A stretch of 64,000 nucleotides of DNA from Octopus sinensis (lineage: Eukaryota): the NCBI RefSeq assembly GCF_006345805.1, contig NC_043001.1, positions 6,324,001-6,388,000 on the forward strand, in the 5' to 3' direction. Below the pieces are notes generated by a model. The model had not been told where the DNA came from and made no database searches. It worked only from the letters and a program-made list of their open reading frames with translations. This document shows positions 37,496 to 58,295 of the stretch, in pieces. Positions within the stretch are counted from its first letter, which is position 1, and each line of letters starts with the position of its first letter. Both the position numbers and the translations under genes were made by a program.

Positions 37496-40400
37496 ACGGT
37501 TCGCCAAACAAGATCTAAAAAATGAATTAGCGGTTCGCCAACCGTGTTCGATAAAATGCATCAGCCGTTCGCCAACAGTGATCGATAAAATGACTTAGCA
37601 GTTCGTCAAACTTGATGGCTAAAGTGAATTAGCGGTTCGCCGGACGACATCGATAAAATGACTTAGCGGTTCGTTGACCGTGATCGATAAAATGAATTAG
37701 CGGTTCGCCAACAGTAATCGATAAAATGATGTAGCGGTTCACCAATCGTGATCGATAAAATGACCTAGTTGTTCGCCAACTGATCGATAAAATGACTTAG
37801 CAGTTCGCAAAACAAGATCGATAAAATGATCTACCGTTCCACAACCTTGATCGATAAAATAACTTAGCGGTTCACCAAACGTATCGATAAACGTGATCGA
37901 TAAAATGACTTAGGGGTTCGCCAACAGTAATCGATAAAATGAACTAGCGGTTCGCTAAACGTATCGATAAAATGACTAGCGGTTCGCCAAAAGTGATCGA
38001 TAAAATGACTTATCGGTTCGCCAAACGAGATCGATAAGATGACTTAGCGGTTCGCCAAACGTATTTGATAAAATGACCAAGCGGTTCGCCAACCGTTTCG
38101 ATAAAATGACTTAACGGTTCGCAAAATGAGATCAATAAAATAACTTAGTGGTTCGCTAATCGTTATCCATTCGATGAAATGAATAGCGGTTGGCCAACTG
38201 TGATTGATTAAATAACTTAGCCGTTCGCCAAAACTGATCGATAAATGAATTAGCGATTCGCCAAACGAGATGGACAAAATGACTTAGCGGTTCGCCAAAC
38301 GTGATCTATAAAATGACCTAGCGTTTCACCAACCGTGATCGATATAAATGACATAGCGGTTCGCCAAACGATATCGATAAAATGATTTAGCGGTTCGCCA
38401 CATGAGATCGATAAAATGACTTAGCCGTTCGCCAAACGATATCGATAATATCCATAAAATGAGTTGCTGGTTCGCCAACCGTGTTCGATAAATTGACTAA
38501 GCAGTTCGCAAACCATGATCGATAAAAATGACGTAGCGGTTCGCCAAACGAGATCGATAAAATGAATTAGCGGTTCCCAACAGTGATCGATAAAAATGAC
38601 CTAGCGGTTCGCCAACCATGATCGATGAAATGACTTAGCAGTTTGCCAAACGAGATCGATACAGTGAACTAGAGGTTCGCCAAACGAAATGGATAAAATG
38701 AAATAGCGGTTCGCCACCAGTGATCGATAAAGTGACTTAGCGGATCGACAAACGAGATCGATAAAATGAATTAGCGTTTCGCTAATCGTGATCGATAAAA
38801 TGACTTCGCGATTCGCCAATCGTGATCGATAAAATGACAGCGGTTCGTCAACCGTGATCGATAAAATGACCTAGCGGTTCGCCAACCATGATCGATAAAA
38901 TGATTTAGAGGTTCGTCAACCGTTTTCGATAAAATGACCTAGCAGTTGGCCAACTGTGATCGATAAAATGAATTAGCTGCTCGCTAATCATGATCGATTA
39001 AATGACTTAGCGGTTCGCCACCTGTGATGGATAAAAATGATCTAACAGATCGCCAACAAGATCGATAAAAAGACCTAGCGGTTCGCCAAACCTAACCGAT
39101 AATATGACTTAGCGGGCTGCCAACTGTGAACGATAAAAATGACTTAGCTGTTCACCAAACGTTCTCGATAAAATGACTTTGCAGTTCATCAACGATGATC
39201 GATACAATTCTAGCAGTTCGCCAACCGTTATCGATAAAAAGTACTAGCGGTTCGCCAAAACGAGTTCGATAAATTAAAATAGCGATTCGCTAAACGTAAA
39301 CGATAAAATGACTTACTGGTTCGCCAACCGTGGTCGATAAAATGAACTATCGCTTCACCAACAGTGATCGATAAAATGATCTAGCATTTCGCCAAACATA
39401 ATCGATAAAATGAATTAGCGGTTCGTTTGTCATATTCGATGAAATGACATAGCGGTTCGCCACCATGATCGATAAAATGAATTAGCGGTTCACCAAACCT
39501 GATCGATAAAATGATTTAGCGGTTCGCCAAACGCCATCGATAAAATGACTTAGCGGTTCGCCAACCGTGATCGATAAAATGACATAGTGCTTGGCCAACA
39601 GTGATCGATAAAATGACCTAGCGCTTCGCCAAACGTAATCGATAAAATGAATTAGCGGTTCGTTTGTCATATTCGATAAAATGACTTAGCAGTTCGCCAA
39701 CCATGATCAATAAAATGAATTAGCGTTTCACCAAACCTGATCGATAAAATGATTTAGCGGTTCGCCAAACGATATCGATAAAATGAATTTGCGGTTCAAC
39801 ACTGGAGATCGATAAAATGACTTAGCCGTTCGACTAAAGATATCGATAAAATAAATTAGCGGTTTGCCAAACGAAATCGATGAAAAGACCTAGCGGTTCG
39901 CCAACCGTCAGCGATAAAATGAATTAGCGGTTGACCAACCGTCATCGATAAAAATGACCTAGCGATTGGCCCAGCGTTATCGATAATATGACATAGCGGT
40001 TCGCTAATCTTGATCGATAAAATGATTAGCAGTTGGCCAACTGTGATCGATTAAATGACTTAGCCGTTCGCCAAAACATGATCGCTAAAATGACCTAGCA
40101 GTTCCCCAAACGTGACCGATAAAATGACTTAGCGGTTCACCCACCATGATCGATGAAATGACATAGCGGTTCGCCAAGCGCTATCGATAAAATGACTTAG
40201 CTGCTCGCTAATCTTGATCGATAAAATGATTAGCGGTTGGCCAACTGTGATTGATTAAATGACTTAGCCGTTCGCCAAAACATGATCAACAAAATGACTT
40301 AGCAGTTTGCCAAACGAGATCGATACAATGACATAGCGGTTCGCCAAACAAGAAGGATCAAATGACCTAGCGGTACGTTGACCGTGATCGATAAAATGGC

Positions 40401-41810
40401 TTAGAGGTTCGCCAACCGTGAACGATAAAATGACATAGCTGTTCGCCACAGTGATCTATAAACTGAATTAGCGGTTCGCCATCGTGATCGAGAAAATGAA
40501 TTAGCGGTTCGCCAACCGCGGCCGATAAAATGACTTAACGGTTCGCCATCTTGATCGATAAAATAACTTAGCGGTTAGCCAAACGTATCGATATAATGAC
40601 TAGCGGTTCGCCAAATGTAATCGATAAAATGACTTGTGATGGCTGTCAGACTTAGATGTTCACCAAACGTGATGGATAAAATGATCTAGCGGTTCGGCAA
40701 GACTGATCGATACAATGACATTAGCGGTTCGCCCAACGTGATCGATAAAATGACCTGGCGGTTCACCAAAAGTAATCGATAAAATGAATTATCGGTACGC
40801 CAAACGTGATCGATAAAATGAACTAGCGGTTCGCCAAACGTGGTTGATAAAATGACCTAGCGGTTCGCCCACGAGTTCGATAAAATGAATTAGCGGTTCG
40901 CTAATCCTGATCGATAAAATGATTAGCGGTTGGCCTCTGTGATCGATAAAATGAATTAGCGGTTCGCTAATCGTGATCGATAAAATGATTGGCGGTTCGC
41001 CAACCGTGATCGATAAAATTAACTAGCAGTTCGTCATAAATAATCGATAAAATGACTTAGCTGTTCGCCAACAGTAATCGGTAAAATACTCTAGCGGTTC
41101 GCCATCCATGATCGAAAAAATGAAATAGCAGTTCACGAAACCTGATCGATAAAATGACTTAGCGGTTCGCCAAACGTTATCGATAAAATGACCTAGCGGT
41201 TCGCCAACCGTGATCGATAAAATGACCTAACGCTTCGCCAACAGTAATCGATAAAATGAACTAGCGCTTCGCCAAACGTAATCGATAAAATGAATTAGCG
41301 GTTCGCTAATCGTGATCGATAAAATGATTAGCGGTTCCCAACTGTGATCGATAAAAATGACCTAGCGGTTCGCCAACCATGATCGATAAAATGACTTAGC
41401 AGTTTGCCAAACGATATCTATAAAATGAATTAGCGGTTCGCCAAATAAGATCGATAAAATGACGTAGCGGTTCGGCAAACGTGATCGATAAAATGAATAG
41501 CGGTTTGCCAAACGAGATCTAAAAAATAACCAGCGGTTCGCCAACCATTACCGATAAAATGAATTAAAGTTTCGCCAAACATGTTCGATAAAATGAAGTA
41601 GCGGTTCGCCAAACGATATCTATAAAACGATCTAGCGGTTCGCCATACGTGATCGATAAAATGACCTAGCAGTTCGCCAACCATTCTCGATAAAATGAAT
41701 TAAAGTTTCGCCAAACATGTTCGATAAAATGACCTTGCGGTTCGCCAACAGTGATCGATAAAATAATATAGCAGTTTGCCAAACTTGATCGATAAAATGA
41801 CCTACCGGTT
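37496..41810. repeat. 34-bp minisatellite, roughly 125 copies
   Basis: Consensus GACTTAGCGGTTCGCCAAACGTGATCGATAAAAT; period counted at 38281-38314; copy number estimated as length/34. Confidence 0.97.
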
Positions 41811-42054
41811 CCTCAGGATATGCGGGATGCTAACATCATTACGCTTTACAAACACAAAGGTGACCGTGGTGATTGTAACGATGACCGTGGAATATCTCTT
41901 CCAAGCACCGTTGGAAAGGCCTCTGCTCGCCTTATCCTGTCCAGGCTGCAACTGCCTGCTTCTCGAATTTATCCAGAATCGCAGTGTGGCTTTAGAAGAA
42001 GCAGATCAGCTATTGACATGATATTCTCCATACGCCAACTGCAGGAGAAATCCA
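41807..42054 (+). pseudogene. RTE reverse transcriptase fragment (N-terminal RT motifs)
   Basis: VPQDMRDANIITLYKHKGDRGDCN..RGISL...PESQCGFRRSRSAIDMIFSIRQLQEK. Confidence 0.92.
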
Positions 42055-44203: not shown

Positions 44204-44700
44204 GGCGGCGAACTGGCAGAATGGTTAGCACGCCGGGCGAAATGCGTAGCCGTATTTCGTCTGACGCTACGTTCTGAGTTCAAATTCCGCCGAGGTCGAC
44301 TTTGCCTTTCATCCTTTCAGGGTCGATAAATTAAGTACTATTTACGCACTGGGGTCGATATAATACACTTAATCCGTCTGTCTATCCTTGTTTATCCTCT
44401 CTGTGTTTAGCCCCTTGAGGGCAGTAAAGAGATAGGTATTTCGTCTGGCGCTACGTTCTGACTTCAAATTCCACCGAGGTCGTCTTTGCCTTTCATCCTT
44501 TCGGGGTCGATTAAATAAGTACCAGTTTCGCACTGGGGTCGATATAATCGGCTTAATTCGTTTGTCTGTCCTTGTTTGTCCCTTTTGTGTTTAGCCCCTT
44601 GTGGGTAATAAAGAAATAGGTATTTCGTCTTTTTTAACATTCTGAGTTCAAATTGCACAGAGTTGGACTTCGCCTTTCGTCCTTTCGTATTTTATTTCGG
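44204..44700 (+). mobile_element. SINE family 2, one full copy plus two headless tandem copies
   Basis: GTATTTCGTCT...TTCTGAGTTCAAATT restarts at ~44252, ~44435 and ~44620. Confidence 0.88.
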
Positions 44701-53004: not shown

Positions 53005-53013
53005 ACACATATA

Positions 53014-53046
<33 letters not shown>

Positions 53047-53051
<5 letters not shown>

Positions 53052-54127
53052 GAGAGAGTGGGGGAGCACGGTTTATTCGTGATCAGAGTTAATACTGTGA
53101 TCAGAGATAACACTATATTTCGATGAAAACTACAAAAGTTTCCTAATCAAAATACTACAATTAAACGATTCTAATATGTTGATTTGTTTTATAACATGTA
53201 TTTAGTGATTAGTTTTGTTTTATCTAAGTATAAATCATAGTTTCCGTGCTGTGAATATATGAATAATAAGTTTATTTTTTCTTTGTCATATACGTCTGAA
53301 ATAAACTATTTACATAGTAAATTATTGTATTAAAATCAATCTTTCTAAATCGTTTATTAGTCGTATTGTTAGGATAAAAGGTAGTCATATAATCATATCA
53401 AAGGGAAAGGGTATCAATTATTGATTTTCCTAGAATCTATATTCCATATTTTGATAATATAACATATGTTGTAACAGTTCGAAACAACCAGTTTGAAATC
53501 CTCTCTTCAAAATATTATATTCCCTGACAGTTTAAACCATGCATCAAGATTAGATACACAAATGCAATAGATAACATACACAATATTTCATGTTCCATTT
53601 CGTCTGGTAGAAATTTGATATTGAAAATTATATCAAATATTTGAAATTAGCAAAAAAAAAAATCATTAATCCACTGTATTATTAATTAAACATTATATTA
53701 TTAAATTAAATCCATAAAACATGCAAACATAATATTTCATATATTATCGATGCGAACAGACTTCAAATATAACATAACATATATTAATATTTAAATATAA
53801 TATGACATGTATAAACATCATGCGTAAACTAACAACATAAAACAAATTATTTTGAAAGTGTTAATGTAAATGGAAACTAATATTATTTAATTAGACGGAA
53901 GGAATGTAAGTATAGATAGATATATACAAATATATATATATATGTGTGTGTGTGTATATATATATATGTGTGGGTGGGTGAGAGAGAGATTAAGCCCATA
54001 ACATACACAATGTTAAATGAAATATATTATAAAGTTGATATATACAAATATAAGCATATTTAATTCCCTCTATGTGAGATGCGCATACATACACACACAC
54101 ACAGATATTTGTATATAATACAGACAC

Positions 54128-54193
<66 letters not shown>

Positions 54194-55080
54194 CAGAGAG
54201 AGAGTGGGGGAGCACGGTTTATTCGTGATCAGAGTTAATACTGTGATCAGAGATAACACTATATTTCGATGAAAACTACAAAAGTTTCCTAATCAAAATA
54301 CTACAATTAAACGATTCTAATATGTTGATTTGTTTTATAACATGTATTTAGTGATTAGTTTTGTTTTATCTAAGTATAAATCATAGTTTCCGTGCTGTGA
54401 ATATATGAATAATAAGTTTATTTTTTCTTTGTCATATACGTCTGAAATAAACTATTTACATAGTAAATTATTGTATTAAAATCAATCTTTCTAAATCGTT
54501 TATTAGTCGTATTGTTAGGATAAAAGGTAGTCATATAATCATATCAAAGGGAAAGGGTATCAATTATTGATTTTCCTAGAATCTATATTCCATATTTTGA
54601 TAATATAACATATGTTGTAACAGTTCGAAACAACCAGTTTGAAATCCTCTCTTCAAAATATTATATTCCCTGACAGTTTAAACCATGCATCAAGATTAGA
54701 TACACAAATGCAATAGATAACATACACAATATTTCATGTTCCATTTCGTCTGGTAGAAATTTGATATTTGAAAATTATATCAAATATTTGAAATTAGCAA
54801 AAAAAAAAAATCATTAATCCACTGTATTATTAAATTAAACATTATATTATTAAATTAAATCCATAAAACATGCAAACATAATATTTCATATATTATCGAT
54901 GCGAACAGACTTCAAATATAACATAACATATATTAAATATTTAAATATAATATGACATGTATAAAACATCATGCGTAAACTAACAACATAAAACAAATTA
55001 TTTTGAAAGTGTTAATGTAAATGGAAACTAATATTATTTAATTAGACGGAAGGAATGTATGTATAGATAGATATATACAA

Positions 55081-55112
<32 letters not shown>

Positions 55113-55285
55113 ATATATATATATGTGTGGGTGGGTGAGAGAGAGATTAAGCCCATAACATACACAAAGTTAAATGAAATATATTATAAAGTTGATATAT
55201 ACAAATATAAGCATATTTAATTCCCTCTATGTGAGATGCGCATACATACACACACACACAGATATTTGTATATAAATACAGACAC

Positions 55286-55336
<51 letters not shown>

Positions 55337-55340
55337 ATAT
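53047..55340. repeat. Near-identical tandem duplication, unit ~1146 bp, TA-bounded
   Basis: CAGAGAGAGAGTGGGGGAGCACGG begins at 53047 and 54193. Confidence 0.95.
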
Positions 55341-55515
55341 ACACAAAATAATAGTTATCGCCATACTAATATGGCATTCTTATAAAAATAAGAAAAAGCT
55401 GTCCGCTTATTAGCTCCATGAGGCCATCGCCTTAAGTTAGCTATTTGATACACAAACTGTATCCATATAACCTTCGAACAAGGGAGGTCAGTCGCTCCAC
55501 ACTACTTGACTGGCA

Positions 55516-55557
55516 GCTACAGACGCGTTTCGGAGTATTGCCCCTTTTCAATGCAGC
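55516..55557 (-). ncRNA. Minimal type I hammerhead ribozyme, U3-A8 core variant
   Basis: GCUGCA-UUGAAAA-GGGG(CAAUA)CUCC-GAAA-CGCG-UC-UGUAGC. Confidence 0.8.
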
Positions 55558-56047
55558 GTAGCCAGCCAGTAGGTGTCGCTTCCGACAATCTCTGTTCGAT
55601 GGTTTTATTTACCTAGTTTCGGTGGAATACATCCACTTGTTTTCAATAATAGAAATATTAAAATAACTAAGTCTCTCTAAAAGAGAACAGCGGCAGCGTT
55701 CCCGGAAAATAATAGTTATCGCCATACTAATATGGCATTCTTATAAAAATAAGAAAAAAGCTTGTTCGAAGGTTATATGGATACAGTTTGTGTATCAAAT
55801 AGCTAACTTAAGGCGATGGCCTCATGGAGCTAATAAGCGGACAGCTTTTTTCTTATTTTTATAAGAATGCCATATTAGTATGGCGATAACTATTATTTTC
55901 CGGGAACGCTGCCGCTGTTCTCTTTTAGAGAGACTTAGTTATTCTAATATTTCTATTATTGAAAACAAGTGGATGTATTCCACCGAAACTAGGTAAATAA
56001 AACCATCGAACAGAGATTGTCGGAAGCGACACCTACTGGCTGGCTAC

Positions 56048-56089
56048 GCTGCATTGAAAAGGGGCAATACTCCGAAGCGCGTCTGTAGC
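56048..56089 (+). ncRNA. Same hammerhead with A15.1-to-G change
   Basis: Reads GAAG-CGCG-UC instead of GAAA-CGCG-UC. Confidence 0.7.
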
Positions 56090-56409
56090 TGCCGGTCAAG
56101 TAGTGTGGAGCGACTGACCTCCCTTGTTCGAAGGTTATATGGATACAGTTTGTGTATCAAATAGCTAACTTAAGGCGATGGCCTCATGGAGCTAATAAGC
56201 GGACAGCTTTTTTCTTATTTTTATAAGAATGCCATATTAGTATGGCGATAACTATTATTTTCCGGGAACGCTGCCGCTGTTCTCTTTTAGAGAGACTTAG
56301 TTATTCTAATATTTCTATTATTGAAAACAAGTGGATGTATTCCACCGAAACTAGGTAAATAAAACCATCGAACAGAGATTGTCGGAAGCGACACCTACTG
56401 GCTGGCTAC

Positions 56410-56451
56410 GCTGCATTGAAAAGGGGCAATACTCCGAAGCGCGTCTGTAGC
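56410..56451 (+). ncRNA. Same hammerhead with A15.1-to-G change
   Basis: Identical to 56048-56089. Confidence 0.7.
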
Positions 56452-56693
56452 TGCCGGTCAAGTAGTGTGGAGCGACTGACCTCCCTTGTTCGAAGGTTAT
56501 ATGGATACAGTTTGTGTATCAAATAGCTAACTTAAGGCGATGGCCTCATGGAGCTAATAAGCGGACAGCTTTTTTCTTATTTTTATAAGAATGCCATATT
56601 AGTATGGCGATAACTATTATTTTCCGGGAACGCTGCCGCTGTTCTCTTTTAGAGAGACTTAGTTATTTTAATATTTCTATTATATATACACAC

Positions 56694-56719
<26 letters not shown>

Positions 56720-56724
<5 letters not shown>

Positions 56725-58295
56725 GTATATAGATATATACAATTATATATATACGTATATATGTATGTATCGTGTACGCATTCATGCCTATGTAGACACA
56801 TATTGCACATATTTTGGCCGAATTAATATAAAAGTTGTTCAGAATTATAATTTTCAGTCATCATAAAAGCGATGACATAATGCATTTGTAGATTTTCCTA
56901 TTAATTTCCCGCCAAAGAGACATTGAAATATACCTTCACGCTTCGGGCTGAGGAACTTCACCAGCAGCAAAAGCAAACAATAAACACGAATAAAGTAATT
57001 ATTAAGAAGTTTCACACCATGCCCCCCTCCATAACACCGTTCCGAATCAGCAGGTTTTTGAAAGAATAAAATCGGTGAGCAGATTCCATTTAGAATGGTC
57101 CACGACTTCTGTGTTAGAGTTATCTCTTTTGGAAAACGACATACAGGAAGGGTGAACTCTGCTAACACTTAGACTTCTTGTATGTCGATTTCCAAAAGCT
57201 CCTACAATTTCTTGATGAACAAATCTTCTGGACCAAATACTACTGGAAACCAAACTCTATGACACAATTTCTGCCTAAAACTGAAATATCACTTTAGCTA
57301 TGAAGTTAGTGCAGACTTCATTCAGTTCGACATATGTAATCAAAAAGACAATGCATCCAGTGTTGCGTTTTTGTAATACTTATAGCTTATTGCTTCATTC
57401 GAGACTATAGTATTTATGTGATCTGATAGTCTTTAAATAATAAATGGGTGTTTGTTGAACAATGGTATAGATGTTAACCGTTGTTTAGAGAAGTATAACA
57501 CCAGATTTTAAGTGTTTCCACACTGAAATCATGAACTAAGAGACTCCTTAATCGAAAAGGAATAATCCTTCTATGATAACCTTTAAAACACTTGTGTATC
57601 TGTGTCCGGATTTAGTTTTCACAGTGTTGCTGCATTTGAACACCTATTTCATGCTTTACCCATTATTTTTTCTGAAAACTATATCTATTTTCGAAATGAT
57701 AATAACATTTCTCTTCTAGTTTATCTTTCCCATTATTGTCTTGCCTAGTTAAATATGTTTAGCAAAAAGACTGACTCTTTCTGATAAGAATTAGATATTT
57801 TTCTTTCCAAATAATCTTTCGAGTGTAAATTCTAATTTGAATCAATCAGTTACAATTTAAGTGGGACAAAAAAGATTGGCACATCTCCATTTATGTATTC
57901 ACACATAGGAGATAGAATATTTTTTGCGCAGAATAATATTTTCATGTCTCTTTTGATTTTTGCAAGATTATATTCAATTATACCCTGTTATTCTGTTCCA
58001 AAATTAAATTTCCTAAGTATGGTTTTATGGTATAATATGTTTTCAGAAATGCATATCTCACAAAACAATATATGTTGTTTATTTCAAGAAAAATAAAACG
58101 TGTCTGTTTTCAGAAAACAGAGAGCAATTAGCGAAAGTCGAAGATTTTAACATACTATCGGTGACTACATTTTATCTGCAAACATAAAAAATAGGGAAAA
58201 ATCAAAATGTAGTATCTATATATTTTACTCATAAGTAAATTTATCTGCAACAAATTTTATATTCGTCTACAGATGCAAATCATTTGAGAAGTGTC

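Follow-up and report, generated by a model that had tools for sequence, protein, structure and literature searches.

The stretch of DNA analysed here, a window of 64,000 nucleotides from Octopus sinensis (contig NC_043001.1), carries a single insertion of a non-coding, 362-bp, hammerhead-bearing retrozyme. The reverse transcriptase (RT) and endonuclease of a Penelope-like element (PLE) are the likely agents that copied its RNA into a (TA)n tract; the probability of this reading is put at roughly 0.83. Taken alone, the array of the window is an ordinary non-LTR retrozyme and belongs to a known class. The more novel part is a lineage of site-specific LINEs for which units of this family serve as targets, a role that was missed in the preliminary description of the window.

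The array in the window and its hammerhead

The array consists of two arms placed head to head, and unit positions (U) are numbered on window positions 56123-56484. The initial estimate of about 2.5 plus-strand and 1.15 minus-strand copies of a 362-bp unit agrees with the measured arms, as do the 2-nt CT overlap at their junction and the non-coding nature of the unit, in which the longest stop-free frame on either strand has 55 codons (Table 1). Unit length and the GC content of 0.38 in the 1-kb bin of the array lie within the range used for non-LTR retrozymes (about 170-400 nt, GC under 50%). Both outer ends had been placed in TA tracts; this holds for the right end, whereas the left end lies 3 nt off its tract.

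Sequence differences between copies had also been taken as an argument against mis-assembly. The arms do differ, by three substitutions and one indel, and a single substitution separates the second and third plus units, but the two full plus units show 0 differences, and a local duplication or an assembly error is therefore still compatible with the extra unit. These two units carry both private changes of the array, and the third, partial unit has the ancestral state at U184, a pattern that fits an original arm of 1.55 units expanded later by duplication or in assembly. The extra identical plus unit is most likely a later local duplication. Other tandem repeats occur in the window: a 1.15-kb, TA-bounded duplication (53009-54185 and 54154-55341, 98.3% identical), either real or a product of assembly, that stops right at the insertion, a 4.3-kb array of 34-bp units with higher-order periods of 68 and 102 bp (37497-41811), and 2.4 copies of a 184-bp repeat (44252-44687), with a similar short tandem at L236.

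Table 1. Positions of the array and associated features in the window.
Feature	Position	Strand	Remarks
Left (TA)n tract	55286..55341		
Minus arm	55345..55762	-	U83-362, then U1-139; 418 bp, 1.15 units
Hammerhead, intact core (U3:A8, GAAA, palindromic helix III)	55516..55557	-	Minimal type I; predicted cut between 55522/55521
Empty LINE target site U262-278	55567..55583	-	
Plus arm	55761..56683	+	U1 (or U3)-362, U1-362, U1-199; 923 bp, 2.55 units
Empty LINE target site U262-278	56022..56038	+	
Hammerhead copy, A15.1-to-G at 56077	56048..56089	+	Private change; likely impaired
Empty LINE target site U262-278	56384..56400	+	
Hammerhead copy, same A15.1-to-G at 56439	56410..56451	+	Unit identical to the preceding one
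60-nt tail between the fixed 3' ends (U140-199)	56624..56683	+	Inferred spacing of two RT start sites
Right (TA)n-rich tract	56681..56770		

The motif comprises a 6-bp helix I, a UUGAAAA core (U3:A8), a 4-bp helix II, GAAA, a palindromic 2-bp helix III and GUC at U321-323. One minimal type I hammerhead had been assigned to each unit; the type was correct, but the motif is complete in three units only, and the two of the plus arm have GAAG at the conserved A15.1. This GAAA/GAAG difference had been read as copy-to-copy variation; the mutation of both plus-arm ribozymes at a core position was overlooked. The core is UUGAAAA and not CUGAnGA: the expression CTGA.GA had no match in the window, and an Rfam scan of the window gave no match to a hammerhead model, while its miRNA-type hits were rejected as artefacts of the inverted repeat and the TA tracts. 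Among 12 loci scanned, three of nine sister-family loci matched Rfam HH9 below the gathering score (best E 4.6e-6).

Comparison of homologous motifs supports the predicted type I fold and core. Across families (23 motif rows), pairing holds in 92.7% of cells, and 11 of 14 pairs vary on both sides, a level reached in 1 of 500 shuffles; within the U lineage alone (18 distinct rows), 90% of cells pair and both-side changes, found at 4 of 25 pairs, are not above shuffles (287 of 500), and since motif rows are related these figures are not probabilities. The 3:8 core pair of the 23 homologous motifs is CG in 10, UA in 10, UG in two and another combination in one. GAAA is present in most of 156 motif copies and GAAG in two, both from the plus arm of the window; GAAG did not appear in the contig depth of four sequencing runs. 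In cofolding, a dimeric helix III was predicted for the GAAA copy only, and a shifted pairing for the GAAG copy. A second hammerhead-like string (U199-237) was discarded, as the old subfamily retains neither its GAAA nor its triplet. U3:A8 cores and dimer-dependent minimal hammerheads have been described for PLEs (PMC4209133), and among predicted Xenopus retrozyme dimers only one of nine showed cleavage (bioRxiv 10.64898/2026.07.22.740005). The octopus ribozyme would be expected to cut slowly, and as a dimer only.

Insertion ends, template and the Penelope-like partner

In the 2.7-Gb genome, the 23-nt ribozyme motif has 1,359 exact matches against none for its reversed control, and the family is thus not a product of chance. 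Identity to the unit is 97-100% in 40 scored copies of 774 candidates. The family is young and dispersed, and the initial view of a young retrozyme-like family is supported. For an older subfamily, at 81% identity to U, the candidates number 2,783, and families B and C share about 290 nt of homology with the unit (z 10.9 and 10.5 against 200 shuffles). These further hammerhead retrozyme families (L100:5509-5565, L194-L212, L234-L238) have cores of both C3:G8 and U3:A8 type. The unit was also found in sequencing runs from 11 studies. Two runs of different studies (X1 and X9, guessed to be RNA) have a contig in common in which a copy begins at U3, preceded by one and the same unique flank, and depth is high; this may be read-through from one expressed locus. 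As for contigs with a back-joint at 362, which come from runs not on record as RNA, a circle and a tandem predict them equally.

Insertion ends were analysed at 64 loci with 117 arms, including the locus of the window. Forty-two loci came from 47 stretches that cover the first 100 motif matches, with five LINE-bearing stretches set aside, and 22 from 30 scored loci after removal of seven duplicates and one edge-cut locus. Mapping the start and end phases, as had been suggested, gave variable 5' ends and two fixed 3' ends: 58 arms stop at U192-204, 50 at U130-141 and nine are broken, which places 108/117 in two classes 60 nt apart. The plus arm of the window has the long end and its minus arm, at 55345, the short one. 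Head-to-head pairs follow a strict rule, as 40 of 47 combine a short with a long end, none is short with short or long with long, and seven have a broken end. The unbiased subset repeats this pattern (31 pairs: 26 short with long, none like-ended, five broken), and 40 mixed pairs would arise by chance with a probability of about 7e-13. Seven short-with-long and three broken pairs were seen at 20 loci of the old subfamily, and two family B loci (L235, L238) obey the same end rule with a tail of about 43 nt. Of 334 polymorphic sites, paired arms carry the same allele at 329, where 236 would be expected, and they diverge by 0.6%, compared with 1.8% between loci. The pairing of all 40 intact pairs as short with long, together with the alleles common to both arms, speaks against the two independent priming events originally proposed and indicates that each insertion is one coupled event. 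For PLE-driven, coupled priming at two sites, this evidence is unusually clean.

Inverted 5'-truncated copies and TA flanks, both typical of PLEs, recur across the 64 loci, and target site duplications (TSDs) of about 8-20 bp were found at three less repetitive sites (L008, L074, L091). The two-end tail, the inverted copies and the TA targets sustain the earlier attribution of mobility to Penelope-like machinery, since a tail, an inverted copy and a (TA)n bias are PLE hallmarks (PMC8557442, PMC11167929). In vitro, RT has been reported to start at two internal sites, with the protein cutting both strands and ribozyme cleavage not being needed (PMC11167929). In the mechanism proposed here, a PLE enzyme, probably a Neptune-type dimer, would nick both strands of the target; one cDNA would start at about U139 and the other at about U199, both templated by a single RNA or by sister RNAs of common origin, and these truncated cDNAs would then join by microhomology (CT in the window).

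A Neptune-type PLE is the likely partner, because the CX4CXXC linker, a Neptune-type feature, is present in all three PLE ORFs checked in this genome, and several of its PLE families carry minimal hammerheads with a U3:A8 core and a palindromic helix III. Of 5,029 GIY-YIG candidates in the genome, 28 loci were fetched; BLAST of the unit against these 28 gave no tied match, only a separate old-subfamily insertion in L104, and similarity of the unit to 16 PLE downstream regions was not significant (best z 2.6). In a young Neptune-like family (L093-L097, L101-L103), an RT-GIY-YIG frame of 781 codons is intact and preceded by a frame of 479 codons, and there is a U3:A8 hammerhead; this family was rejected as the partner (L093) for lack of a sequence match and for its tail of about 38 nt against 60 nt. 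It is very unlikely that the family consists of nothing but 5'-truncated pLTRs left behind by an autonomous PLE. The full PLE insertion signature is present, and PLE fragments lie within 3 kb in L059, L062, L090, L104 and L127. However, the preliminary description had itself named abutment on a Penelope RT/GIY-YIG ORF as a point to check, and none of the 117 arms has a PLE ORF on its 5' side, nor do the unit arrays hold an RT and GIY-YIG ORF within the element, as an autonomous PLE does. Moreover, the fragments in L059, L062 and L090 are separated by TA tracts and have no sequence in common with the unit, and arrays reach about ten complete units (L076).

Other explanations concern how the inversion and the multimers arose. 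L1-type twin priming by a LINE is a highly improbable source of the inversion: the junction is inverted and shows microhomology, and the genome has active LINEs, but twin priming yields one fixed end and non-overlapping pieces, while here both arms have fixed 3' ends and overlapping sequence without poly(A), and the rule of short with long ends contradicts it. Hardly credible is an assembly artefact behind the whole structure of the window. The identity of the two full plus units, with two private changes in common, and the adjoining 1.15-kb, 98% tandem duplication would suit such an error; nevertheless, dozens of loci spread over many contigs show the same geometry, runs of 11 studies contain the unit, and the doubt is limited to the extra plus unit at most. 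A stronger contender, though still doubtful, is a rolling circle in which the ribozyme frees a monomer, the monomer closes into a circle, and RT rounding this 362-nt circle supplies all of the multimer length. It would account for arms that repeatedly cross the cut site, for private alleles in all units of some arrays (G19C in 10/10 covering units of L076; L025; L027) and for the strong fold of the unit (z -6.8), and mussel retrozymes of 350-390 nt do form circles (PMC7229834). Against it stand variants of internal units that are absent from the outermost unit (L065, L092 and the window) and the four-unit higher-order repeat of L076, which together indicate duplication at the DNA level, and a weak 5'-end cluster at U360-7 (9/77 arms, scan p 0.02) that suggests a linear start or an RT stop.

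Because cDNAs extend across the ribozyme site, the template of the coupled PLE-type insertion favoured here was likely either circular or a multimer that had not been cleaved. 5' ends are not in excess at the ribozyme cut (4/77 unbiased arms, p 0.13; 7/117 overall, p 0.03 uncorrected). Genome-wide junction matches numbered 15 at the cut and 18 at a control site, a rough comparison given that the patterns differ in capture rate, with four of five and two of three fetched matches, respectively, being true. Junctions at U3 gave 50 genome-wide matches over several subfamilies, all nine that were fetched being true, and the plus arm of the window begins at this cluster. The U3/U360-7 cluster may mark where transcription begins, or a point below the long extended helix I at which RT stops. 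The distribution of variants is mixed: some alleles extend through whole arrays, others are limited to internal units or occur in higher-order repeats, and later local duplication seems to account for part of the multimer length.

A LINE nested upstream of the ribozyme

At three loci of the unbiased sample, the unit contains a 5.36-kb LINE flanked by a duplication of U262-278. The insertion lies 32 nt upstream of the hammerhead core, and the TSD is 17 bp long. The copy at L108 has an ORF1 of 512 codons (CCHC), an ORF2 of 1,140 codons (APE, RT and zf-RVT in Pfam) and an AATAAA signal without poly(A). Structures of L1 EN are nearest to its endonuclease, and the best named homolog of the LINE, at 63% identity, is from Argonauta hians. 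The element is called Tx1-like on account of this architecture and of its site-specific insertion with a TSD, a placement made by architecture and behaviour, not RT phylogeny.

LINE 3' ends were located with a 23-nt 3'-end pattern, and 53 of its 59 matches lie just upstream of a hammerhead in the U family and its relatives. Thirty-five are at the U site, 17 are in families B or C at 25-29 nt upstream of the hammerhead core, and the rest comprise one LINE-TSD-LINE tandem (family B type), one copy at the 5' end of a U1 snRNA gene and five elsewhere. A separate pattern gave 18 matches to LINE-type ends at the corresponding site in the old subfamily, against 0 for its control. Some 35 of about 1,360 young units are occupied. 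In a tree of 44 DNA rows, with incompletely converged bootstrap, the U-site copies cluster together with a copy whose 3' flank is unclear (99/99). Family B LINEs make up a separate group (100/100), their ORF2 being about 80% identical, and neither the off-target copies nor those at U1 belong to the U-site group.

Independent LINE insertion is shown by 5'-truncated copies with TSDs at the same site (L169, L158 and, in family B, L238), by LINE-TSD-LINE tandems (L163, L168, L205) and by at least five recurrent target haplotypes among 25 LINE insertions. These same observations make it unlikely that the LINE lacks site specificity and landed only once, a composite of LINE and unit then being spread by PLE machinery or DNA duplication. 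Such spread would fit the largely full-length copies (32 exact 5' junctions against 35 3' junctions) with identical junctions, the single haplotype that makes up 8/25 insertions, and tandem runs of LINE plus unit (4+1 copies, C3:72.50-72.53 Mb). Yet head-to-head junctions fall within retrozyme sequence and not within the LINE, opposite arms pass empty sites, and distinct LINE clades reside in distinct retrozyme families.

Some individual loci add to this picture. In one head-to-head insertion (L159-L161 and L111, G000:C3:72.50-72.53 Mb), all five intact sites are LINE-filled with full-length copies, four of them in tandem with a 5.7-kb period, which may reflect either serial insertion or local duplication. 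A sister LINE subfamily occurs at the first bases of a U1 snRNA gene (L214, G000:C15:29053000-29053400) and at other sites beginning ATAC(T/A) (L199, L213, L215, L216, L136). This subfamily possibly has a weak U1-type target preference, with ACCTGG common to some family B targets.

For site-specific insertion, the LINE would make its first nick at U262, and sister LINEs likewise insert into sister retrozyme families. The LINE might be transcribed by read-through and trimmed at its 3' side by the host ribozyme 62 nt downstream. Joined together, these elements would form a chain of three tiers, in which Neptune-type PLEs move retrozymes while co-diversified Tx1-like LINEs target them and use host transcription and the hammerhead; the chain as a whole is offered tentatively, with the odds somewhat against it. 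Each LINE family would then have a retrozyme family of its own as target, entering it just before the ribozyme, and LINE RNA would be cut out by host transcription and hammerhead, as with R2 in rDNA except that the ribozyme would be borrowed. Were the three tiers real, the short-with-long pairing would show a PLE dimer priming two strands at two fixed RNA sites in one reaction.

The movement of animal retrozymes and the formation of the tail and inverted copies of PLEs are open questions. A young family without an ORF offers hundreds of near-identical insertions, and its rule of short with long ends from the same source constrains any PLE mechanism and can be tested in the published in vitro system. 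Moreover, the site-specific LINE adds a target class, a ribozyme-bearing retroelement, that did not appear in the literature covered, and the matched LINE-target pairs are suited to studying how endonuclease specificity evolves.

Comparison with known systems

Animal retrozymes have already been proposed to be non-autonomous PLE derivatives (bioRxiv 10.64898/2026.07.22.740005), and mollusc retrozymes are known from mussel (PMC7229834); the word 'ribozyme' is absent from the main text of two cephalopod repeat papers (PMC13282606, PMC8967140). Like metazoan non-LTR retrozymes, the family of the window is built of non-coding units, a few hundred bp long and in tandem, and has low GC, long TSDs and a type I hammerhead (PMC7229834; 10.64898/2026.07.22.740005). 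To these its insertion ends add direct PLE signatures, namely two fixed ends and the strict pairing of short with long, an analysis not found in the available parts of those reports. It differs further in its U3:A8 core and in the lack of a homologous pLTR among the 28 GIY-YIG loci, its ribozyme being predicted from sequence.

With Neptune/Poseidon PLEs and non-autonomous PLEs such as MRC1, the family shares the two-start tail, the inverted 5'-truncated copy, microsatellite targets, and the minimal hammerhead with a palindromic helix III and the U3:A8 variant (PMC8557442, PMC11167929, PMC4209133). In contrast to PLEs, it has no ORF, forms whole-unit tandems and has a 60-nt tail, where the published tails measure 30-40 nt.

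The nested LINE resembles Tx1-clade LINEs (Tx1L in Tx1D, Tx1-Mar in Mariner-N4, Keno in U2) in its ORF2 of APE, RT and zinc finger, its CCHC ORF1, its fixed site in a multicopy repeat, its TSD and its tandem insertion (PMC4494074, PMC4640811). Targets given for Tx1 elements in the available text of these two papers are DNA and LTR transposons, snRNA, 5S, tRNA, microsatellites and unspecified 'satellites'. No link of Tx1 to retrozymes or hammerheads was found in the literature covered, Repbase, Dfam and Kojima and Fujiwara (2004) being outside its scope, and a site-specific LINE parasite of retrozymes seemingly has no earlier description. What sets the octopus LINE apart from these Tx1 elements is its target, a hammerhead retrozyme entered upstream of the core, and the manner in which distinct LINE lineages track distinct retrozyme families.
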